Shown here: piece after piece, positions 6,919 to 46,679 of the stretch
Numbering within the stretch: position 1 is the first letter of the stretch
Layout: each line of letters starts with the position of its first letter
DNA from: Candidatus Saccharimonadales bacterium
Lineage (GTDB): Bacteria > Patescibacteriota > Saccharimonadia > Saccharimonadales > UBA4665
Assembly (NCBI GenBank): GCA_039809105.1
Contig: JBDHUJ010000001.1
Span: forward strand, 1-59,375
DNA length: 59,375 nucleotides
Reading direction: 5' to 3'
Notes under the pieces: model-generated
The model's database searches: none
What the model was told of the DNA's origin: nothing
Seen by the model: only the letters and a program-made list of their open reading frames with translations
Position numbers and translations under genes: made by a program

Positions 6919-6975
6919 ATAGCGAGGATAGCCTCTACTCCGACACAAGCACCACCCCCCCACCTATTATCTTCG

Positions 6976-7082
6976 GATATGAGCGGCAGCGAACGAGCCG
7001 AAAGGCGAGCTTTAGGGGAAGGGAGACTTATCCCGAATTCACTTCGGGATAAGTTGGGAGGGGCGAGCCCCTCCCTGAAGAG
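6976..7082 (+). repeat. Modular hairpin repeat, family B copy 2
   Basis: Same blocks as 1943-2160. Carries the nested hairpin GGGAGACTTATCCCGAATTCACTTCGGGATAAGTT. Confidence 0.9.
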
Positions 7083-7108
7083 CTCGGTTATGCCGAGCTC
7101 GGGTTATA

Positions 7109-7189
7109 CTAGCGCTCGTTTTCGCTGAGGTCTTCGTTGACGAAGACATCCTCGACGGCGACGGCTTGCTTCTGGTTCTTGTTCGGCAT
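7109..7189 (-). CDS. Candidate 26-aa small ORF (MPNKNQKQAVAVEDVFVNEDLSENER)
   Basis: GGAGGGAACAT-ATG gives a strong SD at ideal spacing on the minus strand. No homology assessable. Confidence 0.3.
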   Translation of the reverse strand: MPNKNQKQAVAVEDVFVNEDLSENER

Positions 7190-7335: not shown

Positions 7336-7354
7336 GCACCTGTAGCTCAGCTGG
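7336..7354 (+). repeat. Exact 19-nt copy of the 5' end of tRNA-Arg (integration scar candidate)
   Basis: GCACCTGTAGCTCAGCTGG is identical to 7450-7468. The downstream sequence does not fold as a tRNA. Confidence 0.85.
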
Positions 7355-7449
7355 CCAAGGCGAAGCCGGCAGAGAACTACAACGGAACGCTCTATCCAAA
7401 CTATCATTAGCTAGATAGAGGCACTTAACAATGTATGTCGCCAAATTAT

Positions 7450-7526
7450 GCACCTGTAGCTCAGCTGGATAGAGCGTTGGCTTGCGGAGCCAAAGGTCGT
7501 AGGTTCGAATCCTGCCAGGTGTACCA
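7450..7526 (+). tRNA. tRNA-Arg (anticodon GCG by manual fold), CCA encoded
   Basis: Acceptor GCACCTG/CAGGTGT, D arm GCTC..GAGC, anticodon stem TTGGC/GCCAA with loop TTGCGGA, T arm GTAGG-TTCGAAT-CCTGC, then ACCA. Confidence 0.88.
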
Positions 7527-9134
7527 TGATTGAATTAGAGCCTCGTAAGAGGCTTTTTTCATCTGTTGGGGCAAGGTTCCGACGCGGACTAACTCCGCTT
7601 CCATGGCTGCCTTAGTATCCACCACTGGCTGTAAGTATTTGATGGGCTTGATGAACACCTGACCGTCCATGTACACCAGCCGCTCGTTCAGCCCTGCTAG
7701 CACCGCTCGCTTGCGTTCGTCGCTGTCGCTCTCAAAGTCCTCTTTGGCATAGCGGGCGAAGTTAAAGAACTGGCGGGCACGTTCACGGGCTTGGCGGCTG
7801 CGTTCCTGCTGTTTAGTGCTGCTGGTCTGTGGGTCTTTGAGCTGCCGCTCTAGCTTGCTGCTCTTGGCGTCAAAAAACGCCTCGCTACAGCGTCCCGTGT
7901 AGAGCATCCGCTGTAAGCCGTATAGCTCAGTCTCAACGGCTTTTATAGCCTTACCTTGAGCCTTGTGCAGCTTCTCTAGGTCGGCTTCTTGCTCGTCGTT
8001 CCACTCGTTCAGATACTTACAGGCATACTGAAAGAAGTCGTCCATAATGGTGTACTTCTTGAGCTCGTCACGGATGAGCTTATTCATGGACGCTGGCTTG
8101 ATTTTCTGCTTATTAGAGCACGTGTAGTCCTTGCGGCGGTCTGTGCAGTAGCAGTACTCAAAGTATTGGCTCTCACCGTTCTTGTAGTGGCGTACCTTGC
8201 GGGCATAGGTGATTATGTAGCCACACTCGCCACACTCCACCAGCCCACGGTAAACATTGAAATAGTCGTACTCTGCCATCACGGTAGGGCGGTGGCGGTT
8301 ACTGACAGCTATCAGGCTCTGTACTCGGTCAAACTCCTCAGGCGTCACCATAGCGGGGTGGTTGCCGTGGTAGAGCTTGCCGCCGTAGATGAAGTCGGCT
8401 CGGTAAAACGGGTTATGAAACATGGCATACACGCCTGCCACGCTCAACGCCATGCCGCCCGTCTGCTTCCGCTGCACGGTCTTAAGCCCTAGCTCCTTGT
8501 CGGCTTTTCGGGCTATCTCGCTAGCGTTGTACATGCCGCTGAGCATCCAGTCCCACATTTTGCGGACTAACGCCCAGCGTTCAGGGTCGGCAATAATGAT
8601 TTTGCCTTGTAATGGGTCGTGGAAGTTTACATAACCGATGGGCGGTACGCCTGGGAACCAGCCCTTGTCAGCACGGCTGTACATACCACGGCGGACGTTC
8701 ACCATCAGCTCACGGACGTACTGGTTGCTCATGCTAGCCTCTACGCTAAAGATAATAGCGTTGTCAGATGGCAGGTAGACTTTATCGTTAGTGATGATGC
8801 ACTTAATCAGCCCGTCTTGTAAGAGCTGTTGTAGTACACCGCTTTCGGCTGGGTTGCGGGATAGGCGGTTAATCTGCCAGCAGATAATGGCGTCAATCTC
8901 GCCGCGGCGGATACGCTTAATCAGGCGGTCAAATTCTGGTCGGTTGCCTGGCGTTTTCGCCGATTTTTCCTCTTTGATGATATTAGCTTTTTTCAGCTTG
9001 ATGCCCAGGCTGGTGGCTTTCTTGCTCATGATGCCTACCTGGTCGCCGATGGACTGTACCTGCTTGCCTTTGTCCTCGGTGGATTTGCGGGCGTATAGCC
9101 CTGCGTTTAGTTCTCTGTAATTAACTTCGGTCAT
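7461..9134 (-). CDS. Large serine recombinase (integrase)
   Basis: N-terminal resolvase fold (GLYARKSTEDK, DAIICWQINRLSRN), recombinase domain, Cys-rich zinc ribbon (CGECGY...YCYCTDRRKDYTC) and a coiled-coil tail. The last ~30 codons are antisense to the tRNA terminator and tRNA-Arg. Confidence 0.9.
   Translation of the reverse strand: MTEVNYRELNAGLYARKSTEDKGKQVQSIGDQVGIMSKKATSLGIKLKKANIIKEEKSAKTPGNRPEFDRLIKRIRRGEIDAIICWQINRLSRNPAESGVLQQLLQDGLIKCIITNDKVYLPSDNAIIFSVEASMSNQYVRELMVNVRRGMYSRADKGWFPGVPPIGYVNFHDPLQGKIIIADPERWALVRKMWDWMLSGMYNASEIARKADKELGLKTVQRKQTGGMALSVAGVYAMFHNPFYRADFIYGGKLYHGNHPAMVTPEEFDRVQSLIAVSNRHRPTVMAEYDYFNVYRGLVECGECGYIITYARKVRHYKNGESQYFEYCYCTDRRKDYTCSNKQKIKPASMNKLIRDELKKYTIMDDFFQYACKYLNEWNDEQEADLEKLHKAQGKAIKAVETELYGLQRMLYTGRCSEAFFDAKSSKLERQLKDPQTSSTKQQERSRQARERARQFFNFARYAKEDFESDSDERKRAVLAGLNERLVYMDGQVFIKPIKYLQPVVDTKAAMEAELVRVGTLPQQMKKASYEALIQSWYTWQDSNLRPLAPQANALSS
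7539..7559 (+). terminator. Rho-independent terminator of tRNA-Arg
   Basis: AGCCTC-GTAA-GAGGCT followed by TTTTT. Confidence 0.75.
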
Positions 9135-9297
9135 TGGTTTATCTCCTTATATCAAAAGGACGGCTTGGTTGTTGACACGGTAGACTGCACAAAGCAATTT
9201 TCCGATACCAAGCCGCCCTTTCGGTGCGGAAATAAAAACGCTCCGTGCGTTATTATCTATCGTGTCAACAGTTACTATTATAGTCCTAAGGTGCTAA

Positions 9298-9501
9298 CTA
9301 CTCAACAGCGGTGCTATCAGTAGTATCGTCAGTTGTACTCTTAACAACTTTGTGTATGATGTGCGTGAGCGGCTGGATGGTCGCCACGAACTTGATGAGG
9401 TCTAGAGCGTCACGCTCGGCTTCCTCGTCGGTCAGGTCGGTGCCGTAGTGTTTGCGGTGCAGTGCCCGAAACTCGGCTATGGCTTCATCGCTTAGTCTCA
9501 T
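9298..9501 (-). CDS. Hypothetical small acidic protein (island)
   Basis: 67-aa ORF co-oriented with the integrase. No recognisable motif. Confidence 0.45.
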   Translation of the reverse strand: MRLSDEAIAEFRALHRKHYGTDLTDEEAERDALDLIKFVATIQPLTHIIHKVVKSTTDDTTDSTAVE

Positions 9502-9643
9502 GGCTGAACTCCACGGACAATGCCACCGTTATAGCTACCGCTACAAACAAGTACCCCTACATTAAACAGAACCTTTATATAGGTATATGTAACCCTAATA
9601 TAGATACCTTTATAGAGAGATACTATATAGCCCTGTAAGGTTC

Positions 9644-10030
9644 TCATTGGTGGTACCCCCTGGGCTGTTGGCGGGTGCTGTAGTCCTGGCTGGCTGGGAA
9701 TAGTCCTTGTGGGCTATTGCTCGGCTCAGTCGGCGGCGGTGCGATGGCGGCGTCTGTGTCGTCGTTCCGTTCCGCCTCTCTGACCGCTTCTAGGCACGCC
9801 TGTTCAATTTCCTGCCACAACGTGCAGCTCTTATCAAACTCAGGCGTCGTCAGCCACTTACCCTTTACATTGGTGGCGGGCGGTTGCACCCACCAGCCGC
9901 TCATATTCCTATCGGAACGAACGGCACGGAAGCCATCTATGTATAGCCCCAGGTCAAGGACTGATACCTTGAGCCTGTAGCCATCCTTGATGGCAGCCCT
10001 GACCTCCACGCTGATGGAGTGTATTGTCAT
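9644..10030 (-). CDS. Hypothetical protein (island)
   Basis: 128-aa ORF. The beta-rich N-terminal half (ISVEVRAAIKDGYRLKVSVLDLGLYIDGFRAV) faintly resembles SpoVG-like folds. Unverified. Confidence 0.45.
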   Translation of the reverse strand: MTIHSISVEVRAAIKDGYRLKVSVLDLGLYIDGFRAVRSDRNMSGWWVQPPATNVKGKWLTTPEFDKSCTLWQEIEQACLEAVREAERNDDTDAAIAPPPTEPSNSPQGLFPASQDYSTRQQPRGYHQ

Positions 10031-10165
10031 AGGCAGTTCTCCTTATGAAAAGTCCCCCGACGGAATGGCTATCTGTCAGGGGACTATTTAAGCCATTCCA
10101 CCTCTTATTCAATAGGAAAAACACCCATAAAACGGGTGCTATTTAAGGTTCGCTTAAGTGACTGG

Positions 10166-10735
10166 CTAAAACTGCTTCTTGTATCTGTTGTAGTAACGCT
10201 CCAGGCTATCCGCGTCGCCATACTGGTTATTTGAGCCTTTGTAGCCAGGAAGCTTGCCGTTGCTGTAGAGCTTAAAGATTGCGGGGAACGTCATGCCATG
10301 CTGACGGCACTTGAATACGGCATATAGCAACGACGGGTTCTCTGGCGGCTTACGCTTGGTCGGCACGACAGTCGTCGGGAATAGCGTATCCCGTAGGCTC
10401 TCAAAACGTTGCCACTCTTCTAGCAACTCGGCTCTAGTAGTAGTCGGCTCAAACGTGATACTGAACTGCTTAGCGTCAGGGTCAAACCTCATGTTAGTAG
10501 TTTTAGTCTGATTTTCCAGGTACAGCGGCAACATGAATAAGTTGATGTCGGCAACACCAATTAGGTAGCTCTTAGCCAGGCTCCGCTTATACCCCTCAAT
10601 CTGCTTTGGCGTGCTGTTAGGTCGCTTTTCAAGCTCAGCCAGCACTCGTATAGCTCGCTTGAAGTCGGCGTCGTGGTAGACGTGGTACACATGCCAGTCA
10701 TGGGCAGATTTCAGTCTTTGCGTGTTGCTAGCCAT
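10166..10735 (-). CDS. Hypothetical protein (island)
   Basis: 189-aa ORF, co-oriented, with no recognisable motif. Confidence 0.5.
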   Translation of the reverse strand: MASNTQRLKSAHDWHVYHVYHDADFKRAIRVLAELEKRPNSTPKQIEGYKRSLAKSYLIGVADINLFMLPLYLENQTKTTNMRFDPDAKQFSITFEPTTTRAELLEEWQRFESLRDTLFPTTVVPTKRKPPENPSLLYAVFKCRQHGMTFPAIFKLYSNGKLPGYKGSNNQYGDADSLERYYNRYKKQF

Positions 10736-10765
10736 TCCACTAAGAATGGTAGCACTCTAAAATGC

Positions 10766-11155
10766 TTACGCGGTAGCCCCGCTCAAGTCCACGTTCAGCG
10801 TTACGACTGTGGGTGTTGCGTCAGGGCGTTGCAGTAGCATGTTGTACGCCTTCATGGTCATTTCCATGGCTTTGAGCTTAATGATGGTTGGTTCGCTGTC
10901 GTCGTTAATAATAGCTGTTAGCTCAGCCATAATCTGTTCAGGCGATATTGCTGTAGTAGCCATTTGTCCGATGTTTTCCGATAACCAGTCAGGCTGTAGG
11001 TGGTTGAAGTTGCGGGCAGTCTGTATGGAGTAGCCAGCAGCTAAGGCACTTTGGTATGAGTTACCGAACGTCGGGCTAGCGGGGTCATGGTAGCCGTGCA
11101 AGTACTGGCTCTGGCGGGGCGTAAGGGCTGTTGCTTTTGTTTTGATACTTTTCAT
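10766..11155 (-). CDS. Phage terminase small-subunit-like HTH protein (Terminase_2 type)
   Basis: LTPRQSQYLHGY...GNSYQSALAAGYSIQTARNFNHL matches the usual TerS N-terminal HTH pattern (LTpkQ..F...Y...GN...Aa..AGYS..tA). Confidence 0.55.
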   Translation of the reverse strand: MKSIKTKATALTPRQSQYLHGYHDPASPTFGNSYQSALAAGYSIQTARNFNHLQPDWLSENIGQMATTAISPEQIMAELTAIINDDSEPTIIKLKAMEMTMKAYNMLLQRPDATPTVVTLNVDLSGATA

Positions 11156-11223
11156 GTTTACTCCAGGCTCGTTACCTCTGAATAATTATAACCATCCCTT
11201 TACGATTTAGATATACTGTAGAT

Positions 11224-12684
11224 ATGAATACAGCAGCTACATCATCCAAGAAACAGCTTAAGCCAGCACCTGACGCACCCCTAGGGGTCAAATACGCCCT
11301 GACTGTACCACAGTCGGTACTGTTTGCAGACCTTAGCTTACAGGGCAATTTACGTGAGTATTTTGTTGAGGCGATGGGCTTGGATTACGAACCTGCTTAT
11401 ATCGCCATTGACGCTGGCGGGGCTATGAGCTGGAACTATGACAATGACACCGTATTTAACACCGCCTTCACATCAGACCGCTCTATTGCTGACGCTGTAA
11501 CCGCTTTTATCGCCACCATGGGCACCACCGCCCGTAAGCTTGACCGCCGTAGCACGCTCGGTGTAGCAGCTCTCAGGCGTCAAGGTAACGCTGACGACGT
11601 TTTAGCCGACTTGCAAGAGTTCTGGCACGCTTACAAACTGCACATGACAAGCTTATTTACCTTTTGGAATGCAGAGGCTCTACTAGGCAAGGCGATTGCT
11701 GATGAGGTACAAGCGGCTGGGCTAGACGCTGACCAGGCAGAGCTAGACAAGTTCATAAAGTCACGGGAAACAAACCAGTTTGTACGAGAACGCCGCCTGT
11801 TTGAGCGACTGGTGCAGCGATTTGCTGGCAGTGAGCCAGTCACAAAGGAAAATGCCACACCAGAGCTTATCGCCGCGTTACAGCACCATGCCCGTGAGTT
11901 CAGCTTCTTACTGACGCCGTTTAACCTTGGTAATAAGCCTACGGCTGACGCCTTACTAGAGCGGGTTGCTGAAGTGCAGAGCTCGCCTACCACCGAAGCA
12001 GAGCCTAAGCTGCCAGACCTGCCAACGACACCCCAACTCAAGAAGCTTATAGACCTGCTGCAACAGCTCACGTTCTGGAAAAATGAGCGGTTAGACGTAC
12101 TGTCTATGGCTGATGCTCGCATGGAGCTACTGTATCAAGCTGCCGCCGAAGTGCTGGACATACCGCTGAACACACTATTTGCCATGACGTGCTCTGAAAT
12201 TGAGCAGTCACTTGCAAAAGGTGCAGTAGCTGTAGACCAAGGCGTACTCTCTAACCGCCTACAGACTTATTGCCTCATTCTTTCTGAGGGTACTATTGAT
12301 TTCTACCAGCCCTCAGGGCAGCCAGCTAAGCAAAGTGCTATACCACAAGCTGAGATAGGTGCCGAGCTACAAGGCGTGGTAGCTTCTAAGGGTATTGCCA
12401 GCGGCACCGTCAGAGTTATTGAAAGCGATGCTGACCTTGCAGCCCTACAGTCAGGTGATATTCTCGTTACCACGATGACCCGCCCTGAGTATGGGGCAGC
12501 CCTAGACCGAGCGGCAGCCTTTGTGACTGATGAGGGCGGTATGCTATGCCACGCTGCCATCATATCCCGTGAGATGGGCAAGCCATGTATCACGAACACT
12601 GAGTTTGGTACAAAAGTTTTACGTACTGGTATGGCTGTGACGGTTGATGCTGACCGAGGCGTCGTAACTATTGATAAGCTATGA
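11224..12684 (+). CDS. PEP-utilising-enzyme mobile (phosphohistidine swivel) domain protein lacking an ATP-grasp
   Basis: C-terminal ILVTTMTRPEYGAALDRAAAFVTDEGGMLCHAAIISREMGKPCI follows a roughly 350-aa helical region. Its stop overlaps the next start (ATGA). Confidence 0.78.
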   Translation: MNTAATSSKKQLKPAPDAPLGVKYALTVPQSVLFADLSLQGNLREYFVEAMGLDYEPAYIAIDAGGAMSWNYDNDTVFNTAFTSDRSIADAVTAFIATMGTTARKLDRRSTLGVAALRRQGNADDVLADLQEFWHAYKLHMTSLFTFWNAEALLGKAIADEVQAAGLDADQAELDKFIKSRETNQFVRERRLFERLVQRFAGSEPVTKENATPELIAALQHHAREFSFLLTPFNLGNKPTADALLERVAEVQSSPTTEAEPKLPDLPTTPQLKKLIDLLQQLTFWKNERLDVLSMADARMELLYQAAAEVLDIPLNTLFAMTCSEIEQSLAKGAVAVDQGVLSNRLQTYCLILSEGTIDFYQPSGQPAKQSAIPQAEIGAELQGVVASKGIASGTVRVIESDADLAALQSGDILVTTMTRPEYGAALDRAAAFVTDEGGMLCHAAIISREMGKPCITNTEFGTKVLRTGMAVTVDADRGVVTIDKL

Positions 12685-15011
12685 GCTCGCTTGTCCGAGA
12701 CTTGCATGACGTAACGGCGGCTGACCGTGCCGCTGTCGGTGGTAAGGCGGCTTCACTTGGTGAGCTGCTAAAGCTCGGCGTACAGGTACCGACTGGCTTT
12801 GTTATTACGACTAAGGCATACGGAACCAGCGTCAGTGGACAGCTTGCAGATGAAATACTAGCCAGCTTTGATAAGCTCGGTGCCGAACGAGTAGCCGTCC
12901 GCTCGTCAGCGGTCGCCGAGGATGCAGCGGCAGCTTCATGGGCTGGTCAGCTAGATACGTACCTCAACGTAAAACGTGCTGGGCTCTTACAAGCTATTGC
13001 CGACTGTTGGCAGTCTATAGAAAGTGACCATGCCAAGGCGTATGCCGAGAAAAACAACATACAGCAATCAGAGCGAGCAGTTGCGGTGGTGGTTCAAGCG
13101 ATGGTGGACGCTGATACAGCGGGCGTATTGTTCACCGCTAACCCTGTTACTAACGACGTGAGCCAGTGTGTCATAGAAGCAGTGTACGGGCTTGGCGAGT
13201 TGCTGGTGCAAGGTGCTGTCACGCCTGAAACATTTATTGTCACGAAAGATACAGGAGCTGTTGCCGAACACACACCACATCGTCAGCGAACCAAGCTAGC
13301 GTATAAAGACGGCAGCAATACTGAGCTGCCGCTGACCGATACTGAGACAAGTGCTGAGATTTTACAATCAGCTCAAGTCTCAGAACTTGTAAAACAAGCT
13401 CAGATAATTGAGCAACACTACGGCAAGCCGCAAGATATTGAGTGGGCATTTTCTGGCAAGAAGCTGTTTATTGTTCAGTCCCGTGCGATTACCACTATCA
13501 GTACTGCCAGCAGCATAGAGTGGGCAACGACGGTTGCTCGCCGTCACACGCCCCTATTTCTAAGTCTCGCTGTCTCAGGGCAAGATAGTAAACTCATTAA
13601 ACAACAGACTGGCTTACCAATATCTTTTACCCATATACGGCGGAATGGTTTAGCGTTCCAATTTGATAAACAAGAGTTGGCAGCCGCCAGAGCGGTGGTG
13701 CATGCAGCCGTTGAGAAAGACGGGCTGACTTTCTTTGAGACATACGCTGACCGCTGCTACCAATCATGCCAGAAGTTGCTAGAGACCGCCGAAAAAGTAG
13801 CCCAGACACCGTTAGCCTCATCACCTGAGGCAGCTAAGAAGCAGTTGCAGCCTTACTTTGAGGCGGCAGTATCACACGCCAGCCATTTACTAGTGATGAT
13901 ACTAGTGCAGTTTGAGCTAGAGGATTTTCTGAACGCCTTTGTAGGCGGCAAGATTACTGATAAGAAACACTCTGAAAAAGTAGTTGCGGCACTTAAGATG
14001 GCGACTGAGCGTACCCATGAAGTACTTAACGCCAGAGGACTATTAGTGCTCGGTCAATTAGTACAGGAAGCCGTCCCTGATTATAAAAAATGGATTACGA
14101 CAGACCCTGACGAGCTGAGTTTCTGGAACGCTAACGAGTACGCTTACATCTGGGATAGTATCGCTGACTTTACGGGCACGTATGGCTGGATGGGACGGAT
14201 GTACTACGCTGGCGACCCCATAACCTTGAATGATGCAATCATAAGATTACAAAACGTCCTGCGTGAGAGCTGTGCGAAAGAACTAGAAGCGATAGACGCC
14301 CATCGTATCCGGCAGCTAGCCGAGCGGAAACAAGCTATTGCGGCACTCGGCAATAATAAAGAGGCAAAGTTGCTGGCTGAAACCGTTGCCCGCTATATGT
14401 ATCTGCGAACCTACCGCCTTGACGTGTTCTTTATGGCTCATGAACGCATGATAGACATGCTACAGAATGTTGCTCGCCTCTTAGGGCTAGCGGACGTGCA
14501 AGAGCTTATTTATCTTAGCTGGCAAGAAGTTACTGCTGGGCTAGAGGGTAAGCTATCCGCTCAAACCTTACAAGCCGCTGCCAATGAACGCCGATACGGT
14601 TACGAGATGCTCTCTATGGCTGGTAATACTGAATGGGCGGCAAGTAAAGTTAATACAGCCGCCAACGTTACCGATACAGCCGTTACTAGCCTAAAAGGAG
14701 TGACGGCTAACATTGGCAACCGTCAGGGACAGGTACGACTTGTGCTAGATGATAAAGCCATGCAAGATATGCAGCCAGGGGAGGTACTTGTTACCACCAT
14801 GACTACGCCAAGCCTTATGCTGGCAGTTGAGAAAGCTGGAGCTATAGTAACCGATGAAGGCGGCATGCTTTGTCATGCTGCCATTGTCAGCCGTGAGTTC
14901 AATATACCTTGCGTAATAGGCACCGAGACCGCTACCAAGTCTCTCAGGACTGGCGATACTGTAAAAGTTGAGGCTAGCAAGGGGCTTGTCTCCGTACTGG
15001 AACGAGCATAA
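12681..15011 (+). CDS. PEP synthase/PPDK-like phosphotransferase with rifampicin-phosphotransferase-type architecture (ATP-grasp + middle domain + His swivel, no TIM barrel)
   Basis: PPDK_N motifs VGGKAASLGEL, RVAVRSSAVAEDAAAASWAGQ, AVVVQAMVDADTAGVLFTANP and DIEWAF..LFIVQSRAIT. C-terminal VLVTTMTTPSLMLAVEKAGAIVTDEGGMLCHAAIVSREFNIPCV. Confidence 0.85.
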   Translation: MSSLVRDLHDVTAADRAAVGGKAASLGELLKLGVQVPTGFVITTKAYGTSVSGQLADEILASFDKLGAERVAVRSSAVAEDAAAASWAGQLDTYLNVKRAGLLQAIADCWQSIESDHAKAYAEKNNIQQSERAVAVVVQAMVDADTAGVLFTANPVTNDVSQCVIEAVYGLGELLVQGAVTPETFIVTKDTGAVAEHTPHRQRTKLAYKDGSNTELPLTDTETSAEILQSAQVSELVKQAQIIEQHYGKPQDIEWAFSGKKLFIVQSRAITTISTASSIEWATTVARRHTPLFLSLAVSGQDSKLIKQQTGLPISFTHIRRNGLAFQFDKQELAAARAVVHAAVEKDGLTFFETYADRCYQSCQKLLETAEKVAQTPLASSPEAAKKQLQPYFEAAVSHASHLLVMILVQFELEDFLNAFVGGKITDKKHSEKVVAALKMATERTHEVLNARGLLVLGQLVQEAVPDYKKWITTDPDELSFWNANEYAYIWDSIADFTGTYGWMGRMYYAGDPITLNDAIIRLQNVLRESCAKELEAIDAHRIRQLAERKQAIAALGNNKEAKLLAETVARYMYLRTYRLDVFFMAHERMIDMLQNVARLLGLADVQELIYLSWQEVTAGLEGKLSAQTLQAAANERRYGYEMLSMAGNTEWAASKVNTAANVTDTAVTSLKGVTANIGNRQGQVRLVLDDKAMQDMQPGEVLVTTMTTPSLMLAVEKAGAIVTDEGGMLCHAAIVSREFNIPCVIGTETATKSLRTGDTVKVEASKGLVSVLERA

Positions 15012-15296
15012 GCCGCCTGGAAAGAGACAGCCAAACATTATAGCTTTCGCTATATATTATAGATTTGCGATGGTACCAACAAAAGGCACCACAGGCGGGG
15101 GCATGGCGGGAAGTTCCAACGTTGTACACAAAAATTGCGTAAACGCCCACGCCGCCGCCCGTGGTGTCGTCTGAATTAAGCTGTTACTATACCTATATCA
15201 CCTTGAATGAGAGTTACAACTTCTCTAACCACTGTGTACCAAAGAGATTTAATTAGTAGACGTCCGAACGGCGTCTATTTTGCTATTATTAAAAGT

Positions 15297-16142
15297 ATGA
15301 AAGTTGAACTTATTGGATCTGGCGGCTGGGATGGATTGCCTTCGGTATTTTGTAGGTGTTCGGTGTGCCAGGAGGCAAAGAATAATCTTAGTTCAAAAAA
15401 CCGCCGAACCAGACCCCTGCTAAAGATTAGTGGGCATAGTGAGAGCTTTTGTCTTGATATTGGTCCTGACTTTCGAGATCAATCCTCTCGTTTTGATTTG
15501 GAAGTAGATACTTTTTTTGTAAGCCATTGGCACTACGACCATCTTTTTGGAATTTATGAACTTGGGGCGTGGTTTGGGCTCAAGCTTAATAAGAAACCAG
15601 TCGTTTATTGTTCGCGGGGAACAGAAAAGTATATTCAGGAGCACATGGGGTTTATGGACTTGGATATACGAGTTCTAAATGCTTATGAATCAGTACAGAT
15701 TGAGGGAGTAACTGTAATACCAATTCCCGTATATCACATGCGCTCACGAGATGAGGAAAAAAGTACGAATGATCTGGATACACTTGGCTTCATCATAGAT
15801 GATAAACAAACTAAGATCGCCTATCTCGCAGACTACTATAGGCTACCTGAAAAGACTCAGGAACTTGTTAGTCAGTGCGATTTGGTAGTTGCCGATGGAA
15901 CATACTTGCTTGAAGATCAATATCCAAACGAAGCACTTCGTAATGCCTTCAAAGAGTACAGCGATCCAGACCATATGCATGGAAACGACATTCTTGCTTT
16001 TACTAAGTCGCTAGAGATGCCGATTGTATTTCATTCAATCACTCATTTGCCCGAAATGAGTCATGATAGCATGCAACAAATGATGCCCAATAATCACGTT
16101 ATTGGCTATGATGGCATGGATATTACAAGCTTACTTAAATAA
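15297..16142 (+). CDS. MBL-fold phosphodiesterase, PhnP/PqqB-like
   Basis: MKVELIGSGGWDGLPSVFCRCSVCQ...NRRTRP (Cys/zinc motif as in PhnP) and HWHYDH. ORF track start is 15207; ATG 15297 is preferred by analogy with PhnP N-termini. Markedly AT-rich. Confidence 0.78.
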   Translation: MKVELIGSGGWDGLPSVFCRCSVCQEAKNNLSSKNRRTRPLLKISGHSESFCLDIGPDFRDQSSRFDLEVDTFFVSHWHYDHLFGIYELGAWFGLKLNKKPVVYCSRGTEKYIQEHMGFMDLDIRVLNAYESVQIEGVTVIPIPVYHMRSRDEEKSTNDLDTLGFIIDDKQTKIAYLADYYRLPEKTQELVSQCDLVVADGTYLLEDQYPNEALRNAFKEYSDPDHMHGNDILAFTKSLEMPIVFHSITHLPEMSHDSMQQMMPNNHVIGYDGMDITSLLK

Positions 16143-16185
16143 TAGTAAATCGGTTCTAATTTCGTTAATAATGCTATACCAAGAA

Positions 16186-16212
16186 AAAGCCCCAAAATTT
16201 ACTTGGGGCTTT
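16186..16212. terminator. Bidirectional hairpin terminator
   Basis: AAAGCCCCA-aaatttact-TGGGGCTTT lies between the convergent genes ending at 16142 and 16233. Confidence 0.75.
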
Positions 16213-16232
16213 CTCTTATTGCCGCGTTCGGC

Positions 16233-17168
16233 TTACGAGAATATCTTGCGGGCTTTTTTGGGTGTAATGGTGGTACGCAGCAGCTCCTGGTTGAACCGCT
16301 CGGGAGCTTGGCCGGTCGTGGCGTAGTGGTACAGGGCTGCCCGGACTATCGAGTCAAGTGTCGTAAAGAGCAGCACGAGTACTATGAACCCGAGGATTGC
16401 CAGGATTACCACCGGCACCATGAACCATCCCGAAGCCTGCAGGACCGAAAGTATAGCTCCCGAAGCTGCCGCAACCAGCCCGACCGCCAACAGGTACAGA
16501 AGGAATGCGACCAGGAACACGATTCCTACGTCGCCGCTGGCGACAACGCTTTCGCCCCACACCTTCTTAATCAGCCCCACCGAGCGCCGGGTCGCGTCGA
16601 ACGGATGCACGTTCTCGTCGCTCATGACGATGATGGGTATGGCGAAGAAGTTGGCGATGTTCCAGGCGGCGCCCACTAGCCACACGGCGATTCTCCCCGC
16701 CAGTGGTACCCGCTGTTCCAGCGACTGTAGCGCGAAACCTATCGTCGCCATCATCAGGCTGAAGAGCAGTAACGGCCGGAATTTGCGTCGCACGCCAGCC
16801 AGACTGCTTCGTACGGTCGGATCCCCGCCCCGGAACCGTTCCATGGCACCATATACCACTGCGCCACCGAAGAAATTGGCGACGACGGTCATGCAGAAGT
16901 ATAGGGCTAGCCCGAACAATACGTTGAGCCAGGCCGGCACAGTGCCCGAACTGGCGCTAAAGCCGGCTGGGCTGGCAAGCGCGACGTTCACGCCGCCTGC
17001 TACGATATACAGTATGCCGAGAATCACGAGTGCCAATACGCCGAATACTACGCTCAACAGCGGCAGCAGCGACAACTCTTTGTCGAGCCGCAGCACGTTC
17101 CAGGCGCTTTTCGCTAGCTCCCAGCCGGCGCGGAATTTAGATGTCTTGGGTTGCGAGGGTTGTTCCAT
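16233..17168 (-). CDS. Polytopic membrane protein (PadR-linked)
   Basis: 311 aa with about 6 TM helices. AAGGAGAAAGG SD lies before ATG 17168. Overlaps the 3' end of the upstream PadR gene. Confidence 0.7.
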   Translation of the reverse strand: MEQPSQPKTSKFRAGWELAKSAWNVLRLDKELSLLPLLSVVFGVLALVILGILYIVAGGVNVALASPAGFSASSGTVPAWLNVLFGLALYFCMTVVANFFGGAVVYGAMERFRGGDPTVRSSLAGVRRKFRPLLLFSLMMATIGFALQSLEQRVPLAGRIAVWLVGAAWNIANFFAIPIIVMSDENVHPFDATRRSVGLIKKVWGESVVASGDVGIVFLVAFLLYLLAVGLVAAASGAILSVLQASGWFMVPVVILAILGFIVLVLLFTTLDSIVRAALYHYATTGQAPERFNQELLRTTITPKKARKIFS

Positions 17169-17637
17169 AGGTGCCTTTCTCCTTTTCGGGTGGTGTGGTT
17201 TCGGTACGTATCGGCTGCATGGTCTTGGCGGTGGATGGCGGCGGCCGGTGTCCCGGATGTTCTAGTAGGTTCCGGATTTCCGGACGGTAAAAAATCTGAG
17301 TAATCTGCCGTCGCGCGAACGCTTCGAGTACATTGTAGCCGCTCTCGGTTAGGAAATACTGCTTGCGGTCGGGGCCGCCCTGCCCGGCTTCGAGTGTAAA
17401 ATCTATCAGCTGGCCCTCGTTATAGCGCCGCAGTGCGCGGTACATGCTTTTGTCGTCGGCGTCGAGCATACCCTGGGTAGCTTTGGTGATGAACGATTTA
17501 ATTTCGGCCATATGCTTCGGCCCGTCTTTCAGCGCCAGCAGAATCCAGAGTGTCAGCTGGCTTTTTTTGTGCACCTCTTCCCAGCCATCCAGTAGCTGTT
17601 GTTCGTATGCGTCTAAATGCTTGGGTGAATGCTTCAT
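17137..17637 (-). CDS. PadR-family transcriptional regulator
   Basis: LWILLALKDGPKHMAEI...MYRALRRYNEGQLIDF...RKQYFLTESG winged-helix pattern. ATG 17637 has a GAAGG SD. Confidence 0.82.
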   Translation of the reverse strand: MKHSPKHLDAYEQQLLDGWEEVHKKSQLTLWILLALKDGPKHMAEIKSFITKATQGMLDADDKSMYRALRRYNEGQLIDFTLEAGQGGPDRKQYFLTESGYNVLEAFARRQITQIFYRPEIRNLLEHPGHRPPPSTAKTMQPIRTETTPPEKEKGTYGTTLATQDI

Positions 17638-17750
17638 GTATACCTTCAGTATACTACCCAAGGTATACATGTCAAGCATTTGGTAAAATAACAGAGGTAA
17701 GTTACAATATTAAAGCTCTAAGAACGTGTTCGGATGACCACTGACTGGGA

Positions 17751-17816
17751 AGAGCAACCCGAGACTCGCCTAGGCGAGCCCGGCGTGATGAGAAACCCGC
17801 TTGCGGGTGTCTCATG
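17751..17816 (+). repeat. Short core copy related to the family A structured repeat
   Basis: AGAGCAACCCGAGACTCGCCTAGGCGAGCCCGGCGTGATGAGAAACCC-gcttgc-GGGTGTCTCATG. Near-identical start to 59060-59125. Confidence 0.85.
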
Positions 17817-17821
17817 TCCGT

Positions 17822-17912
17822 GGAGAGGTCGCATAGTTGGTCTAGTGCGCTGCACTCGAAATGCAGTATACCGGCAACGGTATCGAGGGTTCGAATCCCT
17901 CCCTCTCCGCCA
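17822..17912 (+). tRNA. tRNA-Ser (anticodon CGA), long variable arm, CCA encoded
   Basis: Acceptor GGAGAGG/CCTCTCC, anticodon stem CTGCA/TGCAG with loop CTCGAAA, variable arm TATACCGGCAACGGTATC, T arm GAGGG-TTCGAAT-CCCTC. Confidence 0.9.
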
Positions 17913-17963
17913 AATAGAAAAGCCTGCAAAGCGCAGGTTTTTCTATTATTCGCCCAGTAATTA

Positions 17964-18446
17964 CTACTGAGCGCCCAAACGCGCTCGAGCTTCCAATAGA
18001 ATATTACGGACAACACACAGTGAAAGCTGTCTCTGACTTTCTGTTCCAAACGTTTCGTAAGAAGATTTGCTAAGCGGTTGGCCATCGGGGCTGTCTATGT
18101 GCCATGTCTGCGCGGCAGAAATGGTAGGAGGAAGCTCCGAACCGTATTCCGGATGCCAACCGACAGACATATGTGTACGCGCAACGAGGGGCCACGGATA
18201 TTCATTCAGTATATTCCCTACAGGTATACTGCGCTGAAAAGTCACTTCCGTCGTATCTCCGAAAACGCCGCTATGTCCGTCCAGCTGTCTTACGGACACT
18301 AGTCGATGTTCCCGACCTGTGCGCTCGCCTGGATTCAAACTAAGTGCAAGCTTGCCTATGCTGTGGTGCTTGAGTCGTTCGATGAAACTTAAGTCATTAA
18401 AAGTACGTGTTCTTGCTGATTCGAGGGCATGTGCGGGTGTTTTCAT
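17964..18446 (-). CDS. Hypothetical protein
   Basis: ORF 17964..18509. ATG 18446 is preceded by an AAGGGTGG SD. No motif recognised. Confidence 0.5.
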   Translation of the reverse strand: MKTPAHALESARTRTFNDLSFIERLKHHSIGKLALSLNPGERTGREHRLVSVRQLDGHSGVFGDTTEVTFQRSIPVGNILNEYPWPLVARTHMSVGWHPEYGSELPPTISAAQTWHIDSPDGQPLSKSSYETFGTESQRQLSLCVVRNILLEARARLGAQ

Positions 18447-18517
18447 ACCACCCTTTATACACCCTAGGCTGAATATAAAAAAGCAGTAGCAGCTTAAATT
18501 GCTATACAATAGGGGCT

Positions 18518-18928
18518 ATGCAAGACAGTATTTTTACAAAGATTATCAAAGGTGAGATTCCGTGTCATAAGATTTACGAAGATGCCGACACCTTCGTACT
18601 GCTGGATATCTTCCCTATCCAGCCGGGCCAAGTGCTGGTCGTGCCGAAAAAGCAGGTCGGGTTCGTGTGGGACCTCGAATCTGCCGACTATACGGCGCTG
18701 ATGGCAACCGTCCAGAAAGTGGGCAAGCACATACGAGAGAAGATACCCGAAAAGTCCCGGGTTGCGGTAATAGTCGAAGGCCTGGATGTGGAAGACCATG
18801 CGCACGTGAAAGTGTTTGCGTTCAATAACGACGCGGAGTTCCGTCGCCTGCCCGACCGCTCGGTCGAGCCGGACCAGGCGGCGCTGGCAGCGATGGCCGA
18901 GAGGCTGCGGATGGAGGATGGGATATGA
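18518..18928 (+). CDS. HIT-family (histidine triad) nucleotide hydrolase
   Basis: IFTKIIKGEIP...VLVVPKK...EDHAHVKVF (HxHxHxx). Confidence 0.9.
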   Translation: MQDSIFTKIIKGEIPCHKIYEDADTFVLLDIFPIQPGQVLVVPKKQVGFVWDLESADYTALMATVQKVGKHIREKIPEKSRVAVIVEGLDVEDHAHVKVFAFNNDAEFRRLPDRSVEPDQAALAAMAERLRMEDGI

Positions 18929-19104
18929 TGCAAGCATTCTGGCTGGCGCTGCTTATTTCGGGCTGCGCAGGCGTGTGGATTTTTACGAAGCTGAACCAGA
19001 AGACGGGGTACGGCAACGGCGGCAGTGCTGTGAAGGGTGCTGTCGTGGCTGGGGCGGTGATTTTTGTTGTCGTGTTCGGCATCGGCTGGTTCATGTTCGG
19101 CTAG
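18925..19104 (+). CDS. Small (59-aa) two-TM membrane protein
   Basis: ATGATG overlaps the HIT stop. Product MMQAFWLALLISGCAGVWIF...GAVIFVVVFGIGWFMFG. Below the ORF-track length cut-off. Confidence 0.5.
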   Translation: MMQAFWLALLISGCAGVWIFTKLNQKTGYGNGGSAVKGAVVAGAVIFVVVFGIGWFMFG

Positions 19105-19189
19105 CGGACATGCCGTACAGTCGAAGCTAACCATTCCCGGCTAGAAATACGCTTATGGAGCTGGTACAATAAGGCTATTATGGCGATGG

Positions 19190-20086
19190 GTGACGAACGT
19201 GGACGCTGAGAGTATTTCCGAGGAAAAGCGCCTTGGGCAGGTGGTGCAAACCGCTCGTCGGGCCGCGGGGTTGACCCAGCAGGCGCTCTGCCAGAAATCC
19301 GGTCTCAGCTACTCCACGCTTGCCAAGATAGAGCGCGGAGCTATAAAAGCGCCATCGGTGTTTACCATACAGCACATCGCACACACGCTTGGCATCAGCC
19401 TGGACCAGCTGCTACAAGACGTGCCGCGCCAGGCGCCGTCGGTGCCCCGTGCCGTGACCACGCAGCTGGACAAAAAGGTATCGAAGTCGGGCGTACGGTT
19501 CGTATTTTTCGATATGAACGGTTGCCTGGTGCGCTACGCCTACAGCGTGGCCGCCAAACTAGCCGAAGACGCCGGTGTGACACCAGATGTGGTGGAGTCC
19601 ATAGTCTGGCGATATGACGACGATATAAACCGCGGTACCGTTTCGATGGACGAATTCAACACCGCCCTGGCCGAGCGGCTGCACATGATGGTCGACTGGA
19701 ACCGCTACTACATAGAGGCGGTCGAGGCGGTCGAAGGCATGGCCGAGCTGTTGGTCTGGGCAGCCGAAAACTACAAGGTCGGCATTCTGACCAACACCGT
19801 ACCGGGTGTTGTCGCACCGATGCTCGAAAGCGGCCTCTTGCCTCGTGTGAGCTATGATGCCATCGTGCAGTCGTGCGAAGTCCACGCTATCAAACCGGAA
19901 CAGGCGATTTTCGAGGCTGCGGCTGCGGCCACCGGGATGGCGCCAGAGGAGATTCTGCTGGTAGATGATAACAGGGCGAATATATCGGCGGCGAGCAAGC
20001 TTGGCTGGCATGTGCTGAGTTTCGACCAGCTGCACCCCGAAGCTTCCATCGTCAGTATCAGCACTGCCCTGCAACCAGTGGATTAG
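19190..20086 (+). CDS. XRE-family HTH fused to a HAD-superfamily hydrolase domain
   Basis: N-terminal LGQVVQTARRAAGLTQQALCQKSGLSYSTLAKIERG. C-terminal part has FFDMNGCLV (DxDx motif variant), ILTNT and VDDN. Confidence 0.78.
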   Translation: MTNVDAESISEEKRLGQVVQTARRAAGLTQQALCQKSGLSYSTLAKIERGAIKAPSVFTIQHIAHTLGISLDQLLQDVPRQAPSVPRAVTTQLDKKVSKSGVRFVFFDMNGCLVRYAYSVAAKLAEDAGVTPDVVESIVWRYDDDINRGTVSMDEFNTALAERLHMMVDWNRYYIEAVEAVEGMAELLVWAAENYKVGILTNTVPGVVAPMLESGLLPRVSYDAIVQSCEVHAIKPEQAIFEAAAAATGMAPEEILLVDDNRANISAASKLGWHVLSFDQLHPEASIVSISTALQPVD

Positions 20087-20458
20087 TTCTCAGTCGGACA
20101 GTTCTCAGCCCTGAGGAAGAGCAGAGGCGTGAGAGCAGAGTTCTCAGAAAACCCCAGAAGCCACCTCAGACCAAAAGCACTGCGGTCGCCGCGGCGACCC
20201 ACACTCAACGCCCGGTCTGCAGTCCGGAAAGGTAGCCCGGCGAGACCACAGCGAAGCCAGTGGTCTCCCGAGCGTAGGGAAACCCACGGGTTTCCCTGTC
20301 AGACGAGGTTACGCCTACGTTGGAAGTCACCACCAACTTGCAACCGTCTTATCTGCTTCTCACTCATCCCCGTGCACAGAGTTCCAGTCAACGCTCCAGG
20401 CCAAGACCGTCCGGGCGTACTTAAGACTCGTCAGGCCAGCGGAAGCTGGGCTGACAAG
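20087..20458 (+). repeat. Family A structured repeat, copy 1 (about 370 nt; candidate ncRNA or complex MITE)
   Basis: Collinear with 44386-44726 and inverted 29725-30000. Conserved blocks are separated by covarying hairpins. Confidence 0.9.
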
Positions 20459-20473
20459 CCTGTAGTAAATCGC

Positions 20474-31547: not shown

Positions 31548-33020
31548 ATGGGTTTGCGAACGATTGTGAAAAAGCTGATTCCGCGTGGGCTGTTTCAGGC
31601 AGTGGAGCCACTTGGCCACCTCTGTGAGGCGGTGCTGTGGAACGTCGTATACGGCTTCCCGGGCCGGGGGATGAAAGTCATCGGCATAACCGGTACCAAT
31701 GGCAAAACTACGACCACATTTTTTGTACACCGCATGTTAACAGAGGCGGGTCTTAAAGTGGGGCTTATGAGCACGGTGGCGTACGGCGTCGGCAACGACA
31801 TCCGGCAACAGGTACAGCACATGACAACGGTCGACAGCCGGACGCTTATGAAGCGGCTGAAATGGATGAAAGAGCAGGGTGTCGAATGGGTGGTCATGGA
31901 AACTACCAGCCACGCACTGGCGCAGAACCGGGTGTGGGGCGTACCATACAGCGTGGCGGTCATGACGAACATCACGCACGAACACCTCGACTACCACAAG
32001 ACGTTCGAACGCTACGTGGCGGCCAAACAAAAAATGTTCAAGCTGGCTCAAAAGAACAAAAAAGGTCTGCAAATGGGAATCGCTAACGCCGACGACCAGA
32101 ACGGCGCGAGCTTTGCTGCGGAAACCGTGCACAGCATGCTGTACGGGATAGACGCCGGCGACGTGCAGGCCATAAACGTCCAGTTGAGCGCGACGGGCGT
32201 GGACTACACCGCGGTGGTAGGGCAGAGGGCAGAGGGCAGACCTGTCCGTCCTGTCGGCCAGACAGGCGGGGGGCAGAGTTCGTCTGGTGACAGTTCGGAA
32301 ACTGGTCATTCTGAGCAACGCGAAGAATCTCAGGAAACATATCAGATACACAGCAACATTCCGGGCAAGTTCAATGTATACAATACGCTGGCGGCGGTGT
32401 GCGTCGGCCGGGCCGTGGGACTCAGTAAAGAGCAGATAGAGCAGGGGATTGCCGCCCTGGAGGGCGTAGAGGGCCGTATGGCCACGATTGACGAAGGGCA
32501 GGCGTTTAGCGTCATCGTAGACTACGCGCACACGCCAGACAGCTTTGAGAAGCTTTTTAAGGACCTGCGGCCGGTCGTAAAGGGCAAGCTCATCGTGCTG
32601 TTCGGGTCTGCTGGGCGGCGCGACGAGGCCAAACGGGCAGTACAGGGCCGGTTGGCGGCCGAATACGCCGATGAGATTGTGGTAACCGAAGAAGACGACC
32701 GTGACATGGACGGCCAGGAAATTATGGAGCAGATTGCCACCGCAGCCGAAGAAGCCGGCAAGGTCCGCGAGCAGAACCTCTTCCTGGTGCATGACCGCAC
32801 CGAAGCAATCGCCTTCGCCCTCGGTCGGGCGCATGCCGCCGAAGATACGGTGTTGCTCCTGGGCAAAGGTCACGAAAAAGATATCTTACGTAACGGTCCA
32901 CGGGCGGCCGAACTCCGTCACTTGCAGCAGGACGACCACAACCCCGACCGCGTCGTAGAATTCCCCTGGGACGAAGTCGCCACTGCCCGCAAAGCCCTCC
33001 GCGCTAACCAAACCAAGTAA
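31548..33020 (+). CDS. murE: UDP-N-acetylmuramoyl-tripeptide synthetase (MurE-type Mur ligase) with a low-complexity insertion
   Basis: GITGTNGKTTTT P-loop, TSHAL, GKFNVYNTLAA and DYAHTPDS motifs. ATG 31548 lies 6 nt after TATACT (31536-31541). Atypical segment GQRAEGRPVRPVGQTGGGQSSSGDSSETGHSEQREESQET. Confidence 0.9.
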   Translation: MGLRTIVKKLIPRGLFQAVEPLGHLCEAVLWNVVYGFPGRGMKVIGITGTNGKTTTTFFVHRMLTEAGLKVGLMSTVAYGVGNDIRQQVQHMTTVDSRTLMKRLKWMKEQGVEWVVMETTSHALAQNRVWGVPYSVAVMTNITHEHLDYHKTFERYVAAKQKMFKLAQKNKKGLQMGIANADDQNGASFAAETVHSMLYGIDAGDVQAINVQLSATGVDYTAVVGQRAEGRPVRPVGQTGGGQSSSGDSSETGHSEQREESQETYQIHSNIPGKFNVYNTLAAVCVGRAVGLSKEQIEQGIAALEGVEGRMATIDEGQAFSVIVDYAHTPDSFEKLFKDLRPVVKGKLIVLFGSAGRRDEAKRAVQGRLAAEYADEIVVTEEDDRDMDGQEIMEQIATAAEEAGKVREQNLFLVHDRTEAIAFALGRAHAAEDTVLLLGKGHEKDILRNGPRAAELRHLQQDDHNPDRVVEFPWDEVATARKALRANQTK

Positions 33021-46657: not shown

Positions 46658-46679
46658 GCCTGGTAATTTTCAATTTACA

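Follow-up and report, generated by a model that had tools for sequence, protein, structure and literature searches.

We analysed a 59,375-nt stretch of DNA from a Candidatus Saccharimonadales bacterium (assembly GCA_039809105.1, contig JBDHUJ010000001.1), below called the window. Positions 7527-16177 are DNA inserted at the 3' end of a tRNA-Arg(GCG) gene in a Candidatus Saccharibacteria chromosome. Gene comparisons identify the part of this block next to the tRNA, element A, as a member of a Saccharibacteria-wide family of 3-9-kb integrative elements that combine a large serine recombinase with a small terminase (TerS). The best reading of element A, to which we give a probability of about one half, is a helper-dependent phage satellite: the phage relatives of its TerS sit directly upstream of large terminase (TerL) and portal genes, which the element lacks.

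The small terminase and the element family

The TerS gene is a 129-aa open reading frame (ORF129; 10766-11155, minus strand), in which a previous sequence-only reading of the window had seen a terminase-type helix-turn-helix (HTH) protein. As a single sequence it matches Pfam Terminase_2 (PF03592) with E 0.013 and 16.6 bits, below the cut-off of 26.1, and the phage family phrog_51 matches it with E 1.4e-4. Both matches cover only the HTH (residues 2-50). Because the single-sequence Pfam score is below the threshold, the homology has to be argued from the family profile. More than 30 clusters of homologues were found (54-88% identity), including clusters named from Saccharibacteria genomes, and some family members have a precomputed PF03592 match. 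The profile constructed from 20 of the homologue clusters (A1) matches the SF6 small terminase (PDB 3zqp) with E 1.2e-5 over residues 6-87 and 91-118. Its N-terminal HTH (residues 6-52) is matched in both 3zqp and 2cmp, and the stretch corresponding to the oligomerisation helix (residues 91-118 against 128-155 of 3zqp) is weak at 8 bits. The AlphaFold model of TerS (pLDDT 65) has helices at 55-108. The profile evidence identifies the 129-aa ORF as a genuine small-terminase homologue of the SF6 G1P/Terminase_2 type. The earlier assignment is thus upheld; as to its proposed check against the Terminase_2 model, the single sequence stays below the cut-off, but the family profile matches the SF6 TerS.

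With the TerS profile, relatives at 27-58% identity were also found on 32 viral contigs. In 29 of these 32 loci TerS is followed on the same strand by an ORF of 370-590 aa and then by one of 560-720 aa, that is, by ORFs of TerL and portal size. In a sample of these loci Pfam recognised Terminase_6N or Terminase_3 in five of seven TerL-sized ORFs and SU10_portal in two of three portal-sized ones. A tblastn search of GenBank phages with TerS gave no match. No relative of the phage TerL and portal proteins was found in the window or in any chromosomal locus of the family. The earlier statement that the block has no capsid or tail genes is correct, and TerL and portal can be added to it.

The order TerS then recombinase was observed in at least eight Saccharibacteria loci (the window, L011, L013, L014, L015, L017, L054 and L056). 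In every chromosomal context long enough to be read (the window, L011/L012, L013, L014, L015, L016-L018, L054, L056) a gene for a large serine recombinase lies 0.2-5.5 kb downstream of TerS on the same strand. The recombinase ORF ends within a convergent tRNA gene in six of the seven loci where the contig continues, L056 being the one without such a gene. The target tRNAs and the overlaps are Arg-GCG in the window (66 nt), Glu-TTC in L011 (41 nt), Asp-GTC in L013 (42 nt), Pro-GGG in L014 (22 nt), Gly-GCC in L017 (12 nt), and Lys-CTT in L054 (22 nt). The L013 element, 4.7 kb in length, lies between the two copies of an 18-nt direct repeat derived from the tRNA-Asp 3' end.

In an all-against-all comparison only TerS and the recombinase were common to all loci. 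TerS is 53-88% identical across the loci, with a ratio of nonsynonymous to synonymous substitution rates (dN/dS) of 0.06-0.15 and saturated synonymous sites, whereas the partner recombinases are 20-28% identical, with the exception of one pair at 56%. By these measures TerS is under purifying selection and functional without TerL, and the recombinase modules change with the target tRNA. The conservation of TerS in the face of differing recombinases and target tRNAs fits a partner outside the element, for example the TerL of a shared helper, and argues against TerS being an accessory factor of the recombinase.

The cargo of the loci varies, and includes SLFN_AlbA_2, inositol-phosphatase and histidine-phosphatase genes, SpoVG, an esterase, and an HTH-Peptidase_M78 gene with DUF4411. 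Some copies are decaying, as the recombinase of L011 is frameshifted and TerS of L056 is split. In L017 (5363-5432, also in L016 and L018) ARAGORN reports a 70-nt tRNA-Leu(GAG) inside a 369-aa ORF; this may be a false positive, or the element may carry a tRNA-like sequence.

Insertion site and structure of the block

The nearest public loci to the window are metagenome-assembled genomes of Candidatus Saccharibacteria. The integration target, tRNA-Arg(GCG), occupies 7450-7526 on the plus strand (ARAGORN; Rfam 69.7 bits), and the block is flanked by chromosomal genes encoding a PIG-L-domain membrane protein, GT2, ValRS, TsaD and a Mur ligase. In two relatives, L003 (GCA_004294955.1) and L019, the distance from the PIG-L gene to the DUF6159, PadR and tRNA-Ser genes is 0.7-1.2 kb, with tRNA-Arg in between. 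Comparison of the syntenic loci shows that both contain nothing of window positions 7527-16227; synteny picks up again at 16228. In a third relative, L002, which is closer to the window than these two, the flank is 87-89% identical to the window at the nucleotide level and the tRNA-Arg is 100% identical, and after it comes a wholly different island with 40% GC. That island begins with a 585-aa serine recombinase, 26% identical to that of the window and running antisense through the tRNA. To the right of 7526, the window sequence is without counterpart in any of L002, L003 and L019. Since the block is missing in L003 and L019 and replaced in L002, it is inserted DNA at a recombination hot spot. 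Presence, absence and replacement occur exactly at the tRNA 3' end, with an integrase adjacent, as in tRNA-associated integrative islands. The proposal of an integrated element beside tRNA-Arg therefore holds, the gene order not recurring in these relatives; the simpler picture of an element starting after the tRNA does not, as the integrase ORF overlaps the tRNA by 66 nt.

In the L002 island (13041-22851) the ORF of the 585-aa serine recombinase extends through the entire tRNA, and the island further encodes a tyrosine recombinase, an AAA ATPase and a 619-aa protein that is J-domain-like. No TerS homologue was found in this interval, the far end of the island lying beyond the fetched DNA. An identical element occurs on one Logan contig from SRR27308737 (L001, corresponding to window positions 7472-17912). 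It is the sole other assembly of the element, is 100% identical, and breaks inside tRNA-Arg and at the end of tRNA-Ser. Such breakpoints are expected of k-mer assemblies at shared tRNA sequences, but population heterogeneity at the tRNA would look alike.

The recombinase gene (557 aa; 7461-9134, minus strand) has the domain composition of a large serine integrase. The Resolvase domain (PF00239, E 3.4e-16) is matched over residues 13-158 with 60.1 bits (cut-off 23.3), and the YARKST motif is present. The Recombinase domain (PF07508, E 3.9e-6) scores 27.5 bits against 21.1. Zn_ribbon_recom (PF13408, E 2.8e-5) scores 24.9 bits, just below the cut-off of 25.3, and the Cys-rich pattern CGECG...CYC is visible. 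The 'integrase' family phrog_95 matches residues 5-494 with E 1.3e-56, and the NCBIfam XisF and Ccr matches are all under the cut-off. Pfam and phrog_95 therefore agree with the earlier description of a 557-aa recombinase with a YARKST region, a recombinase domain and a zinc ribbon. The ORF runs antisense through a terminator hairpin situated right after the tRNA (7537-7556, plus strand; found by terminator scan), which we assign to the element, and then through 66 nt of the tRNA, so that its last 22 codons are tRNA antisense.

The final 8 nt of tRNA-Arg, GTGTACCA (7519-7526, plus strand), are the proposed left att core. The candidate right core of element A is the identical octamer at 15234-15241 (plus strand). 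Within the block the tRNA end has no other 8-nt copy. This copy lies about 125 nt past a conserved segment at the element end (see below), and is directly followed by a terminator hairpin (15255-15279). By our estimate, the chance of an 8-nt match to the tRNA end in the 285-nt spacer is about 0.004. The modelled attP has no convincing dyad symmetry. We infer the exact crossover position from these short matches; the junction of the modelled circle or concatemer (15241|7527) would read ...CTCTAACCACTGTGTACCA|TGATTGAATTAGAGCC..., and the modelled empty sites would read ...CCAGGTGTACCA|AAGAGATTTAATTAG... and ...GGTGTACCA|AGAAAAAGCCCC... The integrase ORF is exactly 557 aa long both in the integrated state, where its tail is tRNA antisense, and in the modelled circle, where its tail comes from the far end of the element; this may be a coincidence. 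We also considered an element with its own whole tRNA and a crossover in the D-loop, prompted by a 19-nt fragment of the tRNA 5' end at 7336. It was rejected as the main model: no tRNA 3' part is present downstream, the L013 repeat is at the tRNA 3' end, and the recombinase genes of L013, L014 and L054 end in the 3' part of the tRNA.

Beyond TerS, two plus-strand genes form the cargo. The first (11224-12684, 486 aa) encodes a protein with the phosphohistidine swivel domain PEP-utilizers (PF00391, E 1.1e-23) and no ATP-grasp domain. Its family is widespread in Saccharimonadales and Actinobacteria, and the pairing with a PPDK_N gene recurs elsewhere. The second (12681-15011, 776 aa) is similar to phosphoenolpyruvate (PEP) synthase and rifampin phosphotransferase, with an ATP-grasp domain, a central domain and a swivel histidine (PPDK_N, E 3.7e-72; PEP-utilizers, E 9e-24). 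The best NCBIfam scores are far below the cut-offs (347 bits against 598 for PEP synthase, 285 against 999 for RPH), and in PDB only the end domains align, with 8a8e and 5fbs. The Saccharimonadales genome L010 has the same two-gene module without any element, and in L009 the module is found in a transposase-rich region.

The end of the element is marked by a conserved non-coding segment (15020-15109, minus strand), the ancestral TerS upstream region, in which a hairpin is followed by the promoter-like pattern TTGGTA-17-TATATA. In it, 65-70 nt at 15041-15109 are 79-91% identical to DNA upstream of TerS in L011, L051 and L015. In L011 and L051 this DNA immediately precedes TerS, at a distance of up to about 40 nt, and in L015 the distance is about 500 nt; in L011 the conservation runs on into the 5' untranslated region as far as the TerS start codon. 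Over the comparisons in which the segment is conserved, TerS is saturated at its synonymous sites. As it abuts the stop codon of the 776-aa gene, the PEP pair has been inserted between TerS and its ancestral promoter, that is, inside the element. An RNA-structure test of the 70-nt segment gave a z-score of -2.4; this interpretation was dropped, since the hairpins are not conserved among the four copies and there is no Rfam match.

The third plus-strand gene (15297-16142, or 15207-16142 for the longer ORF) encodes a PhnP-like phosphodiesterase of the metallo-beta-lactamase (MBL) fold (Lactamase_B_2, E 9.8e-21; NCBIfam PhnP, E 4.5e-20, under the cut-off; PDB 3g1p, PhnP, E 1.3e-13). Its GC content is 0.41, and that at third codon positions (GC3) is 0.36 over the longer ORF. 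Assignment to the Apyc1-type anti-Pycsar enzymes was not retained, as it came from a precomputed flag marked 'weak' and was not reproduced by the Pfam scan. The gene is followed by the outer junction and the original tRNA terminator (16173-16212, plus strand): TACCA-AGAAAA and then a hairpin at 16186-16212, which is the best terminator-like site in the region and confirms the hairpin proposed earlier at the block end. This junction has an 11-nt identity, TACCAAGAAAA, with the tRNA-end repeat and flank of L003. All three junctions consist of the tRNA end, a short A-rich spacer and a terminator, and this common form is read as tandem accretion, with element A next to the tRNA and an older remnant B beyond it. 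The block appears composite, probably two tandem insertions. We lean slightly towards the particular division suggested by the short matches, namely element A at 7527-15233 (7.7 kb) and remnant B at 15242-16172 (GC 0.40), which would contain the MBL gene only. The three-gene plus-strand cargo block of the sequence-only reading was recovered gene for gene, but the MBL gene probably lies outside the TerS element.

Between the integrase and TerS there are several minus-strand ORFs. ORF67 (9298-9501) encodes a small acidic protein directly upstream of the integrase; an ORF of 61-79 aa takes the same position in other family members and is shared by three loci in the all-against-all comparison. It has no matches in Pfam, PHROG, NCBIfam or PADLOC, and its position leads us to guess at a directionality factor. 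ORF49 (9498-9647, 49 aa) was called only on the identical Logan contig (L001, 8266-8415), from which its coordinates were converted. ORF128 (9644-10030) has no matches in the same four collections, and its single-sequence AlphaFold model, made with no alignment, is unusable (pLDDT 50). The family of ORF189 (10166-10735) is large (233 cluster representatives at E<=1e-3) and uncharacterised; its C-terminus is HTH-like and conserved, and its profile has no match in PDB. A hidden Markov model (HMM) of this family, run against all ORFs of the sister elements and L002, matched only the query, so ORF189 is not a core gene; a likeness to a 245-aa protein of L002 (BLAST E 0.012) was dropped after the same search. 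Scans of the viral contigs with ORF189, ORF128 and the integrase found no relatives, and PADLOC matched none of the eight block genes. All four small ORFs noted earlier on the minus strand are thus present, with ORF49 as a fifth, but the term orphan does not suit them, ORF129 having more than 30 homologue clusters and ORF189 having 233.

The composition of the block differs from that of the host. In 1-kb windows outside the block the mean GC content is 0.554 with a standard deviation (sd) of 0.031. It is 0.419 at 15300-15700, 0.505 at 12700-14000 and 0.62 at 16500-16620. Most of the block is only 1-2 sd low, and the MBL part is 4 sd low. GC3 is stratified: 0.59-0.68 in the integrase module, which is host-like, 0.48-0.50 in the PEP/PPDK pair, and 0.36 in the MBL gene. 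In tetranucleotide usage the three sub-blocks correlate with the rest of the window at 0.44, 0.41 and -0.26, against 0.86 +/- 0.05 for host segments of equal length. The cargo composition is therefore distinct and the tetranucleotide signature of the block is foreign; the composition can be told from that of the flanks. The mosaic character suggested earlier is real, but the GC deficit is slight over most of the block. Low GC alone is no marker of the block, as several other 1-3-kb patches of the window are near 50% GC. Another low-GC patch (33-37.5 kb, GC about 0.485) contains a gene with a Fic/DOC domain (33062-34432).

In L003 (11092-11168) and L019 (3321-3397) the tRNA-Arg together with an extended -10 promoter (TATGnTAAAnTTACCCCTGTTG) is inverted relative to the PIG-L and DUF6159 genes as compared with window 7450-7526. 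An inversion in the window lineage was rejected: the outgroup L005 shares the orientation of the window, which suggests that the inverted loci are L003 and L019. Next to tRNAs, L003 (11169-11302) and L013 (8348-8480) have scars of 115-135 bp with copies of the tRNA 3' end as their boundaries. In the former an 18-nt repeat lies 134 nt away from the original; in the latter a second copy, of 9 nt, lies 124 nt away from the 18-nt repeat. The scars may be leftovers of excised or deleted elements. The window has an exact 19-nt copy of the tRNA-Arg 5' end at 7336-7354, 114 nt upstream of the intact gene, and between the two, at 7386-7398, an inverted copy of tRNA nucleotides 17-29. The leader between the conserved promoter (ending near 7312) and tRNA-Arg is unrelated in the window and L002.

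Further upstream, an insert of about 190 nt (6920-7105), rich in hairpins and with three stem-loops that are nearly perfect, separates the PIG-L gene from a small ORF. It is replaced by 18 nt in L002 and has no Rfam match. The small ORF (7109-7189, minus strand) encodes a conserved 26-aa peptide (MPNKNQKQAVAVEDVFVNEDLSENER), has a strong ribosome-binding site and is present in L003 and L019 too; 204 nt around it are 98% identical to L002, against 87-89% in neighbouring genes. Dispersed short repeats of 34-56 nt (82-97% identical) are shared by the window and intergenic regions of L002, the sites in the window being 59092-59124, 45517-45609, 46673-46804 and 32238-32271. One of these repeats lies directly upstream of tRNA genes in L002, L003 and L005 and may be a common tRNA leader or promoter motif.

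The satellite reading and its alternatives

If element A is a satellite, its serine recombinase would integrate and excise it at a very short core near the CCA end of the tRNA, and the element would restore the tRNA 3' end and supply a new terminator. After infection by a helper phage the element would be excised. Its TerS would then bind a site on the element and recruit the large terminase of the helper, and the DNA would be packaged into helper capsids, probably as concatemers, in the manner of the 6-kb PICMI satellites described below. Variable accessory genes, in this case the pair resembling PEP synthase and rifampin phosphotransferase, would ride along. We infer excision, helper dependence and packaging from gene content and conservation.

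Several results weigh against this interpretation. No helper phage was identified, and the chromosomal type of TerS (at least 60% identical, full length) was not found in the viral-contig collection. When the TerS model was compared with known structures by Foldseek, small terminases (7joq, 2ao9) ranked first, at an insignificant E of 0.6. A check of the window and of ten additional proteins from sister elements recognised no replication or regulator family. The candidate att repeat has a length of only 8 nt at 15234, and of 5 nt at the outer junction (16173). No longer tRNA-derived repeat was found at the right end: there is no 18-mer match with up to three mismatches, and blastn-short returned the 8 nt only. 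Neither a circular-junction nor an empty-site sequence was found, a metagenome scan for the reconstructed empty site (the tRNA end joined to the hairpin at 16186) giving 0 hits. Both 'empty' relatives, L003 and L019, bear scars and an inverted tRNA, and so a clean attB is not to be had from them.

Much of this would suit an integrative island that moves without phages, for example by natural transformation or by re-integration once excised, in which TerS has taken on another role, as a DNA-binding regulator, in excision or directionality, or in maintenance. Neither a helper nor a replication module or pac site was identified, much of the terminase similarity is in the N-terminal HTH, with the Pfam and PHROG matches confined to it, and each copy of TerS is linked to a serine recombinase. 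On the other side, the alignment of the profile with SF6 TerS also reaches the oligomerisation helices, and the phage relatives hold the TerS position in their genomes. Moreover, a protein that is well conserved next to highly divergent recombinases at differing tRNAs is the opposite of what is expected of a factor contacting the recombinase. We consider a phage-free island the strongest competitor, with something over a quarter of the probability.

Much less probable is an anti-phage defence island, in which TerS acts as a decoy, leading the packaging motor of an infecting phage astray or blocking it, and the cargo, namely the Schlafen/AlbA_2 and ImmA-DUF4411 genes, the PEP-utiliser pair and the MBL phosphodiesterase gene, serves defence or counter-defence. 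The SLFN_AlbA_2 and HTH-Peptidase_M78 genes, the latter with DUF4411, in the sister elements point this way, and satellites such as phage-inducible chromosomal islands (PICIs) interfere with their helpers through packaging genes. However, PADLOC recognised nothing in the block and the tight linkage to an integrase is left unexplained; besides, this function is compatible with a satellite lifestyle rather than an alternative to it.

A little less probable still is a decayed prophage, of which the integrase and TerS are left. Both genes are typical of phages, and the frameshifted recombinase of L011 and the split TerS of L056 are signs of decay. Still, the same two genes, and in no case TerL, portal or capsid genes, are retained at eight independent loci with differing tRNAs, selection on TerS is strong with synonymous sites at saturation, L013 is a complete unit between repeats, and the genes between TerS and the recombinase are unrelated among the loci. 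Finally, an ordinary strain-variable and immobile region with a domesticated or unrelated recombinase, which might be suggested by the lack of long direct repeats and of an empty site in a close relative, is very improbable given the variation exactly at the tRNA 3' end, the recombinase overlaps at six different tRNAs, and the foreign composition.

The satellite reading may be extended to a more general proposal, which we put forward tentatively and hold a little less firmly than that for element A itself. Saccharibacteria, and perhaps other members of the candidate phyla radiation (CPR), may host an unrecognised family of minimal phage satellites, in which a swappable tRNA-targeting recombinase and a conserved orphan TerS, hijacking a common helper lineage, ferry accessory genes. 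Full-text literature searches yielded no paper on phage satellites together with Saccharibacteria, nor a description of such elements in Patescibacteria, in agreement with the sequence-only reading, to which no such elements in reduced-genome episymbionts were known.

The genomes of Saccharibacteria measure about 1 Mb; the organisms are difficult to grow in culture, and few of their mobile elements have been described. If the proposal is true, a TerS-bearing, tRNA-integrating family would be a concrete vehicle of gene flow, with phosphotransferases, Schlafen-like and toxin-antitoxin-like genes as cargo, and the large terminase matching this TerS would be a handle for finding Saccharibacteria phages. 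The satellite concept would reach the CPR, and parasitism would be nested at three levels, satellite on phage on episymbiont on host. The recombinases are serine integrases with natural attB sites in tRNA genes, and are potential genetic tools where almost none exist. Such elements would probably be missed by satellite finders built on cores of tyrosine integrase and primase.

Comparison with known systems

The 776-aa cargo protein shares with rifampin phosphotransferase and PEP synthase the N-terminal ATP-grasp domain and the C-terminal phosphohistidine swivel. However, its central substrate domain is unrelated, and its partner is the 486-aa paralogue without ATP-grasp.

The integrase resembles those of prophages and islands with large serine recombinases (phiC31, Bxb1, A118, SPbeta, SCCmec Ccr) in its Resolvase, Recombinase and zinc-ribbon domains and in the location of its gene next to att, and the very short shared core fits a 2-bp crossover. 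Unlike in the phiC31-like elements, the integrase ORF enters the tRNA, and the target tRNA changes with the recombinase. To our knowledge, the well-studied serine integrases target protein-coding genes or rlmH rather than tRNA 3' ends, and we know of no description among them of systematic tRNA 3'-end targeting with an overlapping integrase ORF. Insertion at the tRNA 3' end with restoration of that end, tandem accretion and scars are shared with the tRNA islands that use tyrosine integrases; the recombinase family is different, and the repeats (5-18 nt) are much shorter.

In common with PICIs that carry their own terS, such as SaPIs, element A is a small island that occupies a fixed site and has an integrase at one end, a variable accessory slot, and a small terminase of its own without a large terminase or structural genes. 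Thus one hallmark of PICIs, a gene for packaging redirection (terS, ppi or cpm) without structural genes, is present in the form of TerS. Other hallmarks were not seen. No small ORF matches the Stl or AlpA regulator in Pfam, PHROG or NCBIfam, where remote homologues may be missed; neither a primase-replicase with an origin, checked in the window and the sister elements, nor capsid-size genes were recognised. The integrase is a serine and not a tyrosine one, the host is a Saccharibacterium, and the size is 3-9 kb and not 10-15 kb. Hence the PICI-type layout and the orphan TerS noticed in the sequence-only reading are real and recurrent, but the 7.7-kb element, with its serine integrase and with neither Stl/AlpA nor a primase-replicase, is not a PICI.

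A plausible precedent for packaging of such small elements is given by the PICMIs of Vibrionaceae (phage-inducible chromosomal minimalist islands), minimal satellites of about 6 kb that are packaged as concatemers (PMC10803314). They have a tyrosine integrase, AlpA and a primase (int, alpA, prim) and no terS, and integrate next to fis (PMC10803314). Element A is similarly very small, with few genes and no capsid remodelling; it differs in having TerS and a serine recombinase and in integrating into tRNA genes, and fits the PICMIs (PMC10803314) neither by core genes nor by site. As far as gene content and size can be compared, the element resembles the terS-carrying PICIs in its logic and the PICMIs in its size, and belongs to neither.

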